Positions 31,258 to 34,481 of a stretch of DNA of 64,000 nt are shown here, in pieces (within the stretch, counting starts at the first letter, position 1; each line of letters starts with the position of its first letter). Source of the DNA: an uncultured Alphaproteobacteria bacterium (GTDB taxonomy: Bacteria; Pseudomonadota; Alphaproteobacteria; CAAHEQ01; UBA3637); the NCBI GenBank assembly GCA_944392795.1, contig CALXXX010000037.1, forward strand, positions 601 to 64,600. Direction: 5' to 3'. Under the pieces are notes generated by a model. It ran no database searches. It had not been told where the DNA came from and worked only from the letters and a program-made list of their open reading frames with translations. Made by a program: the position numbers and the translations under genes.

Positions 31258-32013
31258 CTATAAATTAGATACTATTGGCTCTTTTAACGGATCTGAGGAC
31301 ATTTGTCCCTGCATTCCTTTCAAAGATTGACGTGTCGCTGTAATCTTCATTTGCAATGCTTTAATCTTATTTTTAACAGCCATAAACTCAGCAGGAACAG
31401 CAACAGCCCCTGCTGAATCAGCTGTTGAACTGGCTGCACTGATTTGAGACATTGTATTTTGTAAATCTTCTAATTCTTTTTTATAATAAAGTGTCTTAGC
31501 CAATACATCAATAACAACCTGTTGCTCATATTGATCTCTTTGTATCTTTTTCAAATTTTCTTCTACTGAACCAACCGCCTGAGAAACTAAAATCGGCTCT
31601 ATTGCTTTTTCCAACGAAGAAGGATTTGTTAAATCAACATCCGAATCTGAAATAAGCCCTCCATCAATATTCTCTTTCCCCGTAGCTTTAAAAGCATCTA
31701 TTGGTGTCTCAGAACCACGCTGAGCCGTTTTAGGCTGATTAACTAAATAACGTTGCAACGGACTAGACGATAAGTCAACTTCATTTTCAAAAAGTTTTAA
31801 TTGCTCTTTCATCTTCTCGATTTTCTGCTTATGGGATTTGATAACTTCTTCTATTTGTTGCATATAGCTGCTGCTTAAACCACCAAATGTGCCGGCATCA
31901 AAAACAGGCAATGGCGTAATCAATGCATCTAAAATAGGGAACGTTATTGCTTTTGAAAAAGAGGGGGTTAACAAAATGATCCCTGTCAAAAAAAGAACTC
32001 CGAGTTTTTTCAT
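31258..32013 (-). CDS. VirB5/TrbJ-like secreted helical protein (paralog), 251 aa
   Basis: Signal peptide followed by ITFPILDALITPLPVFDAGTFGGLSSSYMQQIEEVIKSHKQKIEKMKEQL, resembling the TrbJ/VirB5 N-terminal (IPVxD…QQxxQ…) helical region. The start overlaps the upstream stop (ATGA). Confidence 0.42.
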   Translation of the reverse strand: MKKLGVLFLTGIILLTPSFSKAITFPILDALITPLPVFDAGTFGGLSSSYMQQIEEVIKSHKQKIEKMKEQLKLFENEVDLSSSPLQRYLVNQPKTAQRGSETPIDAFKATGKENIDGGLISDSDVDLTNPSSLEKAIEPILVSQAVGSVEENLKKIQRDQYEQQVVIDVLAKTLYYKKELEDLQNTMSQISAASSTADSAGAVAVPAEFMAVKNKIKALQMKITATRQSLKGMQGQMSSDPLKEPIVSNL

Positions 32014-34481
32014 TTTGTCTCCTCCTCAGCCGCTTCATCCACTACTTCTGTTATTTGAGTATCTCTGTTTGTGTTTTCTTCAATTTCAGCCTTTGTTGGA
32101 ACTCTAATCAAAGATAAATCTTGCATCATCAGTTGTTGAACTATCTCATTTTCTAACAAACGTAATTCCAAAGCAGTTCTTTTAATTTGATTAGAAATCC
32201 CATATTTAACAGCTAATGCTTCAACAGCTTTCTTCTCATCAAAAGTCTTAGCTTGAGCTAAGCGATTTAAAATATCTTGCTCTTGCTCTTCAGCTTCCTC
32301 TATTCCTTTTGATAAGTATTCATAAGCATTTGCTAATCCAGAAGAAGTGACCTCATTGATATATTGAGCTCTTGCTTGACTGACCCGCTTTGTTTCACTA
32401 ACCTCTGTTTTGTTTTGAACCGTCTGAGTATCATTCAGTTGCTCTCTATCAAAGAAAAAAGTTTGTTTAACATAATTCTGCGATATACTCTCACTCTCTT
32501 GTGGCTTCCCAAGCATATTACTCACTTGTTGTTGAGCTTGCTGAGCTGTTGCCAACTTTTGAACAGCATCCGTTTTCGCTTTAACTAACTCTCCTTGCAT
32601 TTTCGTTAGCTCGCCAGAAGAGATATTTATATCCTTCAGAGCATCGTTTAATTGACTTTCCAAATCATTGACCTGAGAAACGGCAGAAGAAGCAGCAGTC
32701 ATAGCTCCAGAGAGCATGCCAGAAGCACCTGAAAAATCAACGATATTTCCCAATGCCCCAATATTCGTTGCGCCAGCCAACATTTCCGTTACAGAAGAAG
32801 AACCTAAGTCACCTAAACTTGAAATTTGTTCCGTTGTCGCAGAAATTTCATCAGCATATTGTGTTACTTTTTCCATCTTCTGCATTAAATCCTGTACCAA
32901 TTGAGCGATACGAGCTGACTCTACAACCGGTATACCTGCGCCTGAAGCAAACATCGGTGTAATCGAAAAAGTCTCATCTAATCCCAAAAGATCCATTCCT
33001 TCTGAAAATAAACCACCAATACTCTCTCCTATTCCACTGGCAATATCGCTGACGCCATCTAAAGCTCCGCCTAAAATATCTCCGGCACTATCCATCAACG
33101 TCCCGACACCATCCGTAAAACTTCCCAGAGCATCTCCAACCATACCTCCGATATCAGAGCTCATAAAGGAATCATACAGACCTGCCCCCCAACTACTTAC
33201 CGAATTCCAAGCGTCACCAATACCATTTAAAGCCGTTGCACTCCAAGAACTTAAAGTATCACCCAAACCGCCTAATGAACCGCCAAGGCCACTCATCAAA
33301 TCCGACCCATATCCAGATAAGCTGGTCCAAGCATCCCCTGCCCAAGACATAGCCGAACTACCCCAGCTTTCAACGCCGCCCCAAACACTGGATAAACTGC
33401 TCATAATACCATCGCTCATACCACTTAAGCTCATACCATCGAAAACAGAACCAACACCACTTGTCAACCAACTGGCCCCATCAGATAAGCCATTCCAAAT
33501 ACTGCTACCTAAGCTACTGATCGTATCGCCAACCGATCCCAAACTTAAATTACCAACAAAATCTGAAACGCCTGTCAATGCGCTGCCAGTCCAATTGCTT
33601 AAAGTATCACCGATAGAACCTAAGCTTAAATTACCTGCAAAATCGGAAATACCTGTCCATGTACTACTGGCTAAACCAGACATACCATTCCAAACACTTC
33701 CCGTCCAACTAGACAATGTATCTCCTGCAGAACCCAACATACCAGATAAGCTACTAGAGCTCATCCAATTTGATAAAGATGATCCTAAATTCCCCGTCCA
33801 AGAAGAAACTGAAGATGCAAAATTACCAAGACCAAGACCATTTGCAAAACCACCAATATCACTCCAGGCAGCAGATCCCCAATTTGCTAAAGCACTCCCT
33901 GCGCTGGAAAGACTTTGCAATGGACTAGACATAAAATCACTGATAACAGAACCAACAGAACCTAAACTATCTAATGCTCCTGTTCCCCAATTCGATAACG
34001 TTGAACCTAAGCTGCCCAAAGAGGGGTTCTGTAAAAAATTAGTCAATCCAGATGTACTGCTCCAATTTGAAATCGAATTCATCATTGAAGAAACACCACC
34101 CGATAAATTACTTGTATTATACCAATTTGATAAAGAACTGCCCATATTCCCAACCCATGACGTAGCCGAAGAAGTCCAACCACTAACGACAGAACCGAAA
34201 TCTGATGCAAAGCCACCGACACCATTCCAAGCACTTGCGCCCCAACTACTTACACCAGAAAATATACTAGAACCAACATCCGCTAAAGAACTACCAAGTG
34301 AACTAAGCCCACTGGAAGCTGCTGATAAAGCACTACCACCCCATCCACTAATCGCGGATCCCATACTTGAAAAAACACTTCCTATTCCTGACAAATTCAA
34401 CTCAAACGCATTTGATTGAATAGGGGCAAATGCTAAATGCAAACACAACAATAAAGAAATAAGTTTGAGTTTAATTGTCAT
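32010..34481 (-). CDS. Large secreted Ser/Gly/Trp-repeat protein, 823 aa, with C-terminal coiled-coil domain
   Basis: Signal peptide (LLLCLHLAFAPIQSNA). About 480 aa made of some 25 degenerate ~20-aa repeats (e.g. LSNWTGSALTGVSDFVGNLSLGSVGDTISS, LGSSLSNWMSSSS, SSWTGSVWNGMSGLASS). A 330-aa helical C-terminal region follows. Confidence 0.55.
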   Translation of the reverse strand: MTIKLKLISLLLCLHLAFAPIQSNAFELNLSGIGSVFSSMGSAISGWGGSALSAASSGLSSLGSSLADVGSSIFSGVSSWGASAWNGVGGFASDFGSVVSGWTSSATSWVGNMGSSLSNWYNTSNLSGGVSSMMNSISNWSSTSGLTNFLQNPSLGSLGSTLSNWGTGALDSLGSVGSVISDFMSSPLQSLSSAGSALANWGSAAWSDIGGFANGLGLGNFASSVSSWTGNLGSSLSNWMSSSSLSGMLGSAGDTLSSWTGSVWNGMSGLASSTWTGISDFAGNLSLGSIGDTLSNWTGSALTGVSDFVGNLSLGSVGDTISSLGSSIWNGLSDGASWLTSGVGSVFDGMSLSGMSDGIMSSLSSVWGGVESWGSSAMSWAGDAWTSLSGYGSDLMSGLGGSLGGLGDTLSSWSATALNGIGDAWNSVSSWGAGLYDSFMSSDIGGMVGDALGSFTDGVGTLMDSAGDILGGALDGVSDIASGIGESIGGLFSEGMDLLGLDETFSITPMFASGAGIPVVESARIAQLVQDLMQKMEKVTQYADEISATTEQISSLGDLGSSSVTEMLAGATNIGALGNIVDFSGASGMLSGAMTAASSAVSQVNDLESQLNDALKDINISSGELTKMQGELVKAKTDAVQKLATAQQAQQQVSNMLGKPQESESISQNYVKQTFFFDREQLNDTQTVQNKTEVSETKRVSQARAQYINEVTSSGLANAYEYLSKGIEEAEEQEQDILNRLAQAKTFDEKKAVEALAVKYGISNQIKRTALELRLLENEIVQQLMMQDLSLIRVPTKAEIEENTNRDTQITEVVDEAAEEETK

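Follow-up and report, generated by a model that had tools for sequence, protein, structure and literature searches.

Layout of the p823 gene

We analyzed a stretch of 64,000 nucleotides from an uncultured Alphaproteobacteria bacterium (contig CALXXX010000037.1 of assembly GCA_944392795.1), hereafter called the window, and focused on p823, a gene encoding a large secreted protein with a Ser/Gly/Trp-rich repeat module. An earlier reading made from the sequence alone had placed this gene in a type IV secretion system (T4SS) operon. In agreement with this, p823 was found in a block with genes for a VirB7-like protein, two VirB8-like proteins, VirB9, VirB10 and VirB11. The ORF listing of the window (ORF, open reading frame) gave an uninterrupted frame of 823 codons at the position first reported, on the minus strand, which had been left unstated, and the four peptide strings quoted in the sequence-only reading were all present (residues 78-102, 232-273, 294-316 and 523-553). 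As presented in Table 1, the protein comprises a signal peptide, a repeat module and a C-terminal VirB5-like domain.

The proposal of a signal peptide and a secreted protein was confirmed by inspection of the N-terminus, which is Sec-signal-like, with K4/K6, a hydrophobic window and an SNA/FE cleavage site inferred by eye. This signal peptide is the single Kyte-Doolittle transmembrane (TM)-like window of p823, the scan finding no internal TM segments, and it was conserved across the orthologues. We rejected p823 as a lipoprotein, LLLC not being a lipobox. At the other end of the gene, the stop codon shares an ATGA with the start codon of p251, which comes next, and p823 is translationally coupled to p251 through this overlap.

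Composition and periodicity of the repeat module

The module consists of 25% Ser, 19% Gly, 11% Leu and 5.3% Trp (25 Trp residues), and contains 26 Asp and 4 Glu without a single Lys, Arg or His, for a net charge of -30. The sequence-only reading had described it as about 25 degenerate repeats of 20 residues. Recurrence was indeed above chance: 22-residue self-matches scored 70-89, compared to a maximum of 66 and a mean of 47.5 in shuffled sequences, and the motifs S[NS]W (10 observed, 1.9 expected) and [WF].G[IVLM] (7 observed, 1.7 expected) were enriched. However, some 25 regular units were not found. An iterated motif hidden Markov model recovered nine copies of a 22-residue motif (SLGSLGSTLSSWGSSALNGVSS), spaced 17-89 residues apart and covering about 190 of the 475 residues. 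The period of 20 residues was not observed either, since the hydrophobic autocorrelation was negative at lag 20 (z = -2.8).

The signals that we did observe are those of a helix. The hydrophobic Fourier peak was at 3.7 residues (11/3 = 3.67), and the autocorrelation was positive at lags 3, 4, 7, 8, 11, 15, 18 and 22, with a negative value at lag 2 (z = -7.9). At 98-100 degrees, the helical hydrophobic moment was 13 standard deviations over shuffles (z = 13), and at beta angles (160-180 degrees) the moment was under shuffles. The two resulting faces are polar (S75/G44/D23/N16) and hydrophobic (L/V/A/W/I/F), with about 1.15 bulky hydrophobic residues in each turn of the helix. The 11/3 hydrophobic period and the helical moment thus argue that the module is a degenerate hendecad array of amphipathic helices and not a beta-solenoid. 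The earlier suggestion of a regular Trp/Gly beta-solenoid adhesin, with its 25 or so repeats of 20 residues, would suit the Gly/Ser/Trp-rich composition and the recurring motifs, and in one member of the protein family, P0009, the N-terminus is indeed built of pentapeptide-like repeats with a period of 5. Nevertheless, it is scarcely credible for p823: there is no period-2 or period-20 signal, the moment at beta angles is low, the motif spacing is irregular, and no Pfam beta-solenoid family matched p823 at E<=1.

In the structure prediction proposed in the sequence-only reading, AlphaFold2 (AF2), run on the full-length protein with an alignment of two sequences, gave a predicted local distance difference test score (pLDDT) of 37, with about 30 across the repeat region, and this model was not used for fold inference. 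The suggested check of DNA self-similarity was negative, as Tandem Repeats Finder and a direct-repeat search revealed no tandem array in the repeat DNA but only weak scattered matches. The repeats are therefore old, and recent duplication was rejected. No further copies of the repeat were found elsewhere in the window.

Conservation of the module

Three orthologues of p823, sharing 76-84% identity and an identical synteny, were recovered from one Logan assembly and two metagenome-assembled genomes of uncultured Alphaproteobacteria. Among the four proteins, the repeat module was 75-93% identical at the amino acid level. The ratio of non-synonymous to synonymous substitution rates (dN/dS) was 0.05-0.08 at dS values of 1.4-3.6, and 0.24 for the closest pair, and purifying selection on the module equalled that on the C-terminal domain. 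Trp was invariant in 20 of the 23 alignable columns, the exceptions being mostly W-to-F changes, and 80% of the Gly residues were invariant. The complete exclusion of Lys, Arg and His extended to all four orthologues, over 451-482 module residues. The only sizeable indels, of 11 residues (one hendecad) and 31 residues, both fell in one stretch (residues 243-273).

Overall, the substitution pattern indicates that the module is under strong purifying selection, and the low dN/dS, the conserved Trp and Gly and the absence of basic residues therefore exclude a drifting low-complexity linker. In favor of a non-specific disordered linker or an annotation artefact one could cite the biased composition, the low pLDDT across the repeat and the antisense ORFs within it. 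Set against the identity retained among orthologues at dS>1.4, the Trp columns and an amphipathic order of z = 13, such an explanation has next to no likelihood.

Similarity to the repeats of tape-measure proteins

We compared the repeat region with the 38,880 PHROG families in a blind scan, and only tape-measure families matched (phrog_1535, 1.2e-6; phrog_58, 1.2e-5; phrog_167, 1.2e-3). An exhaustive phmmer search of p823 against 1.84 billion representative proteins gave 24 matches, of which one was the orthologue cluster, 20 concerned the C-terminal domain only and three concerned the repeat region, namely P0016 (7.9e-8), P0024 (2.4e-4) and a short match to P0018. P0016 and P0024 are themselves tape-measure proteins (phrog_58 at 4e-70 and phrog_1535 at 2e-64, respectively). 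Their scores with p823, 58.1 and 31.7 bits, exceeded 100 of 100 shuffles in each of five controls, which kept the composition only, kept the hydrophobic/polar pattern, fixed the aromatic and aliphatic classes, fixed the Gly class as well, or shuffled 11-residue blocks. A composition artefact as the source of this similarity was rejected by these five designs.

Tape-measure proteins carry Trp/Phe marker residues at 11- and 18-residue periods (PMC3271669; PMC5099701), and are thought to be ejected and then reconfigured into a membrane channel (PMC5099701). In the p823 module, Trp/Phe pairs were enriched at lag 11 (9 observed, 3.2 expected) and lag 18 (8 observed, 3.1 expected; p~0.005 each), and the Trp/Phe positions were in register in the alignment of p823 with P0024. 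Together with this spacing, p823 shares with the repeat region of the three PHROG families the W-x-G-hydrophobic motifs, an amphipathic helical periodicity, indels of repeat units between orthologues and a sequence similarity that resists shuffling. The repeat family, which the sequence-only reading had not recognized, thus has a recognizable nearest relative, the W/F-marked 11/18-residue tape-measure repeat. This is a described class, but strictly not the kind of match, a well-known adhesin repeat of established role outside T4SSs, that would have refuted the sequence-only reading. On the profile evidence the repeat type is tape-measure-like, by descent or by convergence.

In contrast, p823 itself is not a tape-measure protein. 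Its match to the families is partial (about 150 profile positions, repeat part only), it is fused to a T4SS protein and Sec-exported, it lacks tape-measure-type TM segments and lytic domains, and its polar face is made of Ser, Gly, Asp and Asn without Lys or Arg, whereas P0024 has 13 K+R in 165 residues. It does not lie in a tail module and has no chaperone, Dit or Tal neighbors: no phage tail genes were found near p823 in the window, the neighbors being T4SS and housekeeping genes. The absence of basic residues and of TM or lytic domains, the Sec export and the non-phage context therefore set p823 apart. When the repeat region was compared by tblastn with 50,697 phage genomes, nothing matched, probably owing to low-complexity masking.

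The third protein matched by the repeat region, P0018 (311 residues), carries four copies of an acidic amphipathic peptide (DTLLDAAADIIGGAADGVADFANGVFSIFGEEELE) with Lys/Arg-rich spacers between them, an arrangement reminiscent of a precursor that is processed into peptides. Its identity to residues 456-492 of p823, the W-free distal end of the module, is 52%.

The C-terminal domain and its relation to VirB5

The C-terminal region (residues 501-823) has an ordinary composition, and its AF2 model was all-helical (pLDDT 64). The VirB5-like character attributed to it by the sequence-only reading was supported by Pfam: PF07996 (VirB5/TrbJ) matched the full protein with 28.5 bits (E = 2.5e-6) and residues 501-823 with 30.8 bits (E = 4.9e-7), above the gathering cutoff of 24.7 bits and over profile positions 1-138 of 197. 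VirB5-type proteins fold as an elongated helical bundle, as in TraC (1R8I) or TrwJ (8RT9). With the VirB5/TraC/TrwJ/TrbJ family p823 shares a Sec signal peptide, a predicted elongated all-helical domain starting with G-I-P-V, a location upstream of virB7/8/9/10/11 and the presence of paralogous small secreted helical proteins nearby. Such multiplicity is known from Bartonella Trw, with multiple trwJ copies, and from H. pylori, with CagL/CagI/CagH.

The 20 remote matches of p823 form a small family found in metagenomes only, which is unnamed in databases (NCBIfam holds no family for p823). Its members combine a signal peptide and first helix (..EKMEKI.aY..EI..) with a C-terminus that is conserved (YG.PQ...YVK.TFFY...DDKKAVEAL...); their middle part varies and often consists of repeats. 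Two of them carry N-terminal extensions of about 100 residues and several have hendecad-like inserts in the middle; the inserts of two members match the Pfam Apolipoprotein domain at 1e-9. Compared to VirB5 proteins of about 220-270 residues, p823 reaches 823 residues owing to its 475-residue module, and its C-terminal half (YVK.TFF...DEKKAVEAL...) marks a separate small clade restricted to metagenomes.

Alternatively, p823 might not be a tip protein but a secreted or periplasmic accessory of the T4SS, or a substrate, with a superficial PF07996 match and a repeat module of unrelated role, for example in binding envelope polymers or partner proteins. Several results point that way. The PF07996 threshold was reached by p823 alone, 19 of the 20 family members scanned missing it. 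Foldseek of the C-terminal model returned no significant match, only generic helical bundles, and so gave no link to the solved VirB5 structures. No VirB5 chain in the PDB was found with the family profile, and phmmer of p823 found nothing significant among PDB sequences and nothing among canonical VirB5-slot proteins. In hhalign, the family profile A2 gave probabilities of only 0.4% and 1.5% with the VirB5-slot proteins of Agrobacterium (232 residues) and Microvirga (273 residues), both targets being single sequences, and tblastn of the domain against plasmids gave one weak irrelevant match. In addition, p268, p249 or p251 could be the true VirB5, p251 having a canonical ..PVFD.. N-terminus and a weak TrbJ match.

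However, the PF07996 match of p823 exceeds a curated threshold, its mature-type start, GIPV.E and then a long helix, looks like that of canonical VirB5, and the position of p823 in the block is conserved across distant relatives. Moreover, bona fide VirB5-slot proteins are themselves barely or not detected by the PF07996 model (only 42.8 bits for Agrobacterium and no score for Microvirga), which mitigates the negative hhalign result. We therefore regard an accessory or substrate role as quite unlikely, and membership of p823 in the VirB5 family as probable. On the explanation that we prefer, p823 would be exported through Sec and belong to a clade of VirB5-like T4SS proteins that is small and undescribed.

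The sequence-only reading had also placed p823 between VirB5-like genes, which holds only weakly. In hhalign with the family profile, the three flanking genes gave negative or marginal results, p268 matching over the signal peptide and first helix only (44% probability). p251 had a sub-threshold TrbJ match, and nothing was found for p249. The genes flanking p823 are predicted to encode secreted, helical proteins whose VirB5 homology is not demonstrable.

The module as a lineage-specific N-terminal addition

Ordinary members of the family lose their signal peptide right in front of G(I/A)PV(E/Q)S, which is followed by the first VirB5-like helix. In the family alignment (A2) this motif falls on residues 514-521 of p823. 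The module thus comes after the signal peptide and ahead of what is the mature N-terminus in ordinary members.

We observed two different situations in related lineages. In L008, a 61-kb metagenome contig, the synteny (xerC, lptFG-lptD, surA, ksgA, yggT, folD, then the T4SS block) is retained, each of the six block genes has an orthologue there (3e-10 to 2e-52), and the counterpart of p823 is a protein of 421 residues without the module, in which AGIPIEAPP directly follows the signal peptide. In L004, the positional counterpart is P0009 (678 residues, 2186-4222), whose neighbors are orthologous to p249 and p251. Its N-terminus is made of about 460 residues of period-5 LS.L.LD repeats, unrelated to the p823 module, with a sub-threshold Pentapeptide_4 match (22 bits, cutoff 38); it is a different module, possibly beta-helical, on the same N-terminus. 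An orthologue without the module and another with a different repeat therefore identify the p823 module as a lineage-specific N-terminal addition. More generally, the N-terminus and middle of the family are modular and variable, and the W-rich module is specific to the lineage of the window. Three members with unrelated N-terminal extensions (p823, P0009 and P0004; Table 1) share a junction motif, F.SG..G.(P/A)(V/T).E, ahead of the VirB5-like domain, which could be a hinge or a processing site.

A candidate module for contact with the target membrane

In the solved R388 machine, a VirB5 pentamer caps the T4SS stalk and later the pilus tip, the pilus growing beneath it (PMC12624023). The N-terminal part of R388 VirB5 projects outward and not down into the stalk, and the current idea is that it swings outward in the manner of pore-forming proteins (PMC9259494). 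With this orientation, the p823 module would be located at the distal end of the machine. A tip or surface role, already proposed in the sequence-only reading along with a possible beta-solenoid scaffold that was not supported, thus appears the most reasonable assignment given the position in the cluster and the published VirB5 structure.

Hydrophobic insertion is the way in which amphipathic helices bind membranes when their polar face is Ser/Thr/Gly and charges are few (PMC6164224). The p823 module shows the composition of amphipathic lipid packing sensor (ALPS) motifs, that is a Ser/Thr/Gly polar face, few charges and sparse bulky hydrophobics (PMC6164224). Like ALPS motifs, perilipin-4, apolipoproteins and alpha-synuclein, it has an 11/3 periodicity with about one bulky hydrophobic residue per turn. 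As in membrane-adsorbing 11-mer helices, its polar face is Ser/Gly-rich and its helix propensity would be low until bound, and it is long, as perilipin-4 is. In contrast to the ALPS type, it has 30 acidic residues and a length of 475 instead of 20-40 residues. It also differs from the membrane-adsorbing 11-mer families by the lack of a sequence match (Pfam), by an acidic polar face (30 D+E), by being bacterial and extracytoplasmic and by a far higher sequence conservation.

The outward orientation of the N-terminus, this membrane-helix chemistry and the ejection of tape-measure proteins lead us to favor a module carried at the tip that would make contact with the target membrane or penetrate it. 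Taken over its whole chain of steps, we put this forward tentatively, at a little short of an even chance. In the p823 lineage, a module of about 475 residues was added between the signal peptide and the first VirB5-like helix; its repeats are of the tape-measure type, with the polar face remade from Ser, Gly, Asp and Asn and basic residues lacking. The tip location, the pentamer, the folding on membranes and the function are inferences that go beyond this. As a pentamer, p823 would display five modules at the machine's distal end. Its Gly/Ser-rich chains may be flexible until they meet a hydrophobic interface, where they would fold into long amphipathic helices and adsorb to, or insert into, the target-cell membrane. 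The bound helices would extend the reach of the tip and aid contact or penetration, and the lack of cationic residues and the acidic polar face may disfavor sticking to the cell's own anionic envelope.

Several observations weigh against this interpretation, starting with the missing links to canonical VirB5 proteins described above. The similarity to tape-measure proteins could be convergent. The AF2 model provided no usable structure for the module, and its Gly content argues against continuous helices in solution. The net charge would oppose binding to anionic membranes, and the conserved Gly and polar positions are more typical of specific packing or of a protein interface than of a generic membrane-adsorbing helix. 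Finally, genes for VirB2, VirB3, VirB4, VirB6 and VirD4 were not found in the window, and the formation of a pilus by this system can therefore not be assumed.

The conserved Gly and polar positions and the acidic charge would fit a packed multi-helix fiber almost as well. Five p823 modules would then be packed as a coiled coil or helical bundle, up to about 70 nm long if fully helical, which would act as a structural spacer, a rigid tip extension or needle setting the reach of the machine without being membrane-active itself. Hendecad (11/3) periodicity, present in the module, is typical of straight or right-handed coiled coils. The closest relatives, the tape-measure repeats, are largely alpha-helical rods inside tail tubes (PMC3271669; PMC5099701), and the conservation of Trp and Gly above all, with polar positions conserved too, at a dN/dS of about 0.06, suits helix-helix packing through small residues. 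Nevertheless, the 19% Gly and 25% Ser give a low intrinsic helix propensity, AF2 yielded no confident helices (from an alignment of two sequences only), and the register shifts and irregular motif spacing would break a continuous coiled coil. We consider such a fiber unlikely, but a serious alternative to the tip-borne membrane module.

A role closer to that of tape-measure proteins would place the module inside the stalk or the pilus lumen, anchored by the VirB5-like cap. There it could determine how long the pilus becomes, block the channel, or be shot into the target membrane once contact is made. Besides the short P0018 match, the only significant relatives of the module are indeed tape-measure proteins, the 11-residue indel between orthologues corresponds to one repeat unit, and an acidic chain free of Lys, Arg and His would suit a pilus lumen of positive charge, as has been reported for the Agrobacterium T-pilus (bioRxiv 10.1101/2022.04.28.489814). 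However, the R388 VirB5 N-terminus projects out of the stalk, the orthologous L008 system has no module, which makes a core length-determining part implausible, and no pilin gene was found in the window. No module-specific partner resembling a tail-assembly chaperone was seen either, the flanking genes being present in L008 too. An internal plug or ruler is thus very doubtful.

A bolder interpretation would be that the tip protein of a T4SS gained a tape-measure-type module, by acquisition or by convergent evolution, and that the T4SS uses it as phages do: a helical chain held in or on a conduit would be driven into the target membrane on contact and would open or line a channel, possibly also gauging the length of an extracellular structure. 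We regard both the origin and the use proposed here as speculative and decidedly unlikely. If true, they would for the first time connect the mechanisms by which phage tails and T4SSs penetrate membranes, and p823 would be a natural 'exaggerated' version of the VirB5 N-terminal membrane insertion proposed from the R388 structure.

How the T4SS tip recognizes the membrane of its target cell and breaks through it is acknowledged to be an open question (PMC12624023). In this context, p823 is a natural variant in which a VirB5-type N-terminus bears a 475-residue amphipathic, Trp-studded and cation-free module, and the presence of other modules, or none, at the same place in related lineages suggests that the VirB5 N-terminus is a modular, evolvable "business end". 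The literature searched describes no VirB5-type protein that bears a long N-terminal repeat module, whether tape-measure-like or of another kind, and a tape-measure repeat on a T4SS protein appears undescribed there; p823 extends the known distribution of this repeat type beyond phage tails. The module is self-contained and easily expressed, with 25 intrinsic Trp reporters, and its membrane behavior is directly testable even though the organism is uncultured.

The T4SS block and other features of the window

The domain combination of p823, a VirB5-like protein carrying a tape-measure-like module, is unusual, and the T4SS that contains it also has a CagY-like giant VirB10. This system recalls the H. 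pylori Cag T4SS (CagY, CagL/CagI/CagH), a host-interaction-type system in which surface-exposed core parts are likewise enlarged by repeats. The counterpart in the window is the 2443-residue VirB10 with beta-flower repeats together with the enlarged VirB5-like p823. In contrast to Cag, the repeat types are unrelated, the organism is alphaproteobacterial and no homology to Cag-specific proteins was detected.

The coordinates of all features are collected in Table 1. Downstream of p823, on the same strand, follow p251, p546, p206, the VirB7-like lipoprotein, VirB8, VirB9, VirB10 and VirB11. The best sigma-70-like site of the region (TTTACA-17-TATAAT, 11/12) is located at 36022-36050 (-), between folD and p268; promoter-like sites in the region overall were not above chance. 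This location suggests that the T4SS block may have its own promoter, and that p268 would start at ATG 35978 (MLIKKIG...) and not at the listed TTG. The VirB7 candidate resembles by eye a 58-residue lipoprotein preceding VirB8 in a Microvirga plasmid T4SS.

Table 1. Position of p823, its parts and the neighboring T4SS genes in the window.
Feature	Position	Strand	Basis
p823, whole ORF (signal peptide, repeat module, VirB5-like domain)	32010..34481	-	ORF listing; orthologues
p823 Shine-Dalgarno GGGGAG, 6 nucleotides 5' of ATG, overlapping the stop codon of the upstream gene	34488..34493	-	sequence read
p823 signal peptide, residues 1-25, MTIKLKLISLLLCLHLAFAPIQSNA/FE	34407..34481	-	hydrophobic window, kept in orthologues
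p823 repeat module, residues 26-500, predicted degenerate hendecad amphipathic-helix repeats	32982..34406	-	periodicity, PHROG matches, dN/dS
p823 indel-prone stretch, residues 243-273; 11 residues absent from L002, all 31 absent from L001 and L003	33663..33755	-	orthologue alignment
p823 junction, residues 505-521, FSITPMFASGAGIPVVE, containing GIPV.E	32919..32969	-	family alignment; P0009 and P0004 sequences; L008 421-residue orthologue
Junction motif copy in p823, MFASGAGIPVVE	32919-32969	-	
Junction motif copy in P0009, MFGSGGGWPTLE	P0009 ~445-460		
Junction motif copy in P0004, FFSGGTVGCAVLE	P0004 ~122-135		
p823 C-terminal all-helical VirB5-like domain, residues 501-823	32013..32981	-	Pfam, remote homologues, AF2
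PF07996 match within p823, residues 516-657	32511-32936	-	Pfam
p268, secreted helical, first gene of the T4SS block; probable start ATG 35978	35232..36038	-	ORF listing; L008 orthologue
p249, secreted helical, immediately upstream of p823	34493..35242	-	ORF listing; orthologues in L004, L008
p251, secreted helical, translationally coupled to p823, N-terminal ..PLPVFD.. motif, weak TrbJ match	31258..32013	-	orthologues in L004, L006, L008
p546, secreted, no known family, conserved in block	29609..31249	-	L008 orthologue, 2e-52
p206 (206 residues), second VirB8-like paralogue	28979..29599	-	phmmer, 8e-14 with the VirB8 gene
Small lipoprotein, 72 codons, LVAC lipobox, ..P.GIG...LK.SPCAC.. motif; VirB7 candidate	28717..28935	-	by eye
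VirB8	27931-28695	-	Pfam
VirB9/CagX, 556 residues	26168-27838	-	Pfam
Giant VirB10, 2443 residues	18807-26138	-	Pfam
VirB11	17805-18794	-	Pfam

The giant VirB10 has a CagY-type architecture with a different repeat type. The 5-fold beta-flower repeat (PF21785, 2e-117) occurs in it about 17 times, there are also matches to PF21784, DUF3659 and the RHS-repeat, and its TrbI/VirB10 domain is limited to residues 2094-2287. A weak C-terminal SPOR (peptidoglycan-binding) match was observed in the VirB9/CagX homologue (19.2 bits, 21-bit cutoff). The closest annotated relative of the window VirB11 was found in L010 (Microvirga sp. VF16 plasmid pMVF16-3, 671088-686254), with 40% identity compared to about 28% for canonical VirB11s; in this T4SS the VirB5/VirB6-slot proteins are annotated as hypothetical and have no Pfam match.

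An Rfam scan of the window found no RNA families. Antisense ORFs cross the repeat-coding DNA of p823 in the window (33595-34419, plus strand, 274 residues, Pro/Glu/Leu-rich) and of its orthologue in L002 (1644-3005, minus strand, 453 residues), and are most likely artefacts of biased codon content rather than genes. Adjoining the T4SS block, nine consecutive plus-strand ORFs of 198-839 residues occupy positions 5954-17762. Almost none matched Pfam, apart from one double helix-turn-helix and one weak SLATT_5, and they are possible effectors or lineage-specific cargo.

On the other side of the block, a single ORF of 1078 residues (39505-42741, minus strand) combines an LptF/LptG permease domain (6-355), LptD_N/OstA (411-484) and the LptD barrel (659-1014). 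ORFs of 1078-1097 residues lie at the same position in L001 (1765-5001), L003 (1711-5001) and L008 (1275-4568), the L001 gene having the same Pfam domains. This fusion of inner- and outer-membrane lipopolysaccharide-transport components thus appears conserved.

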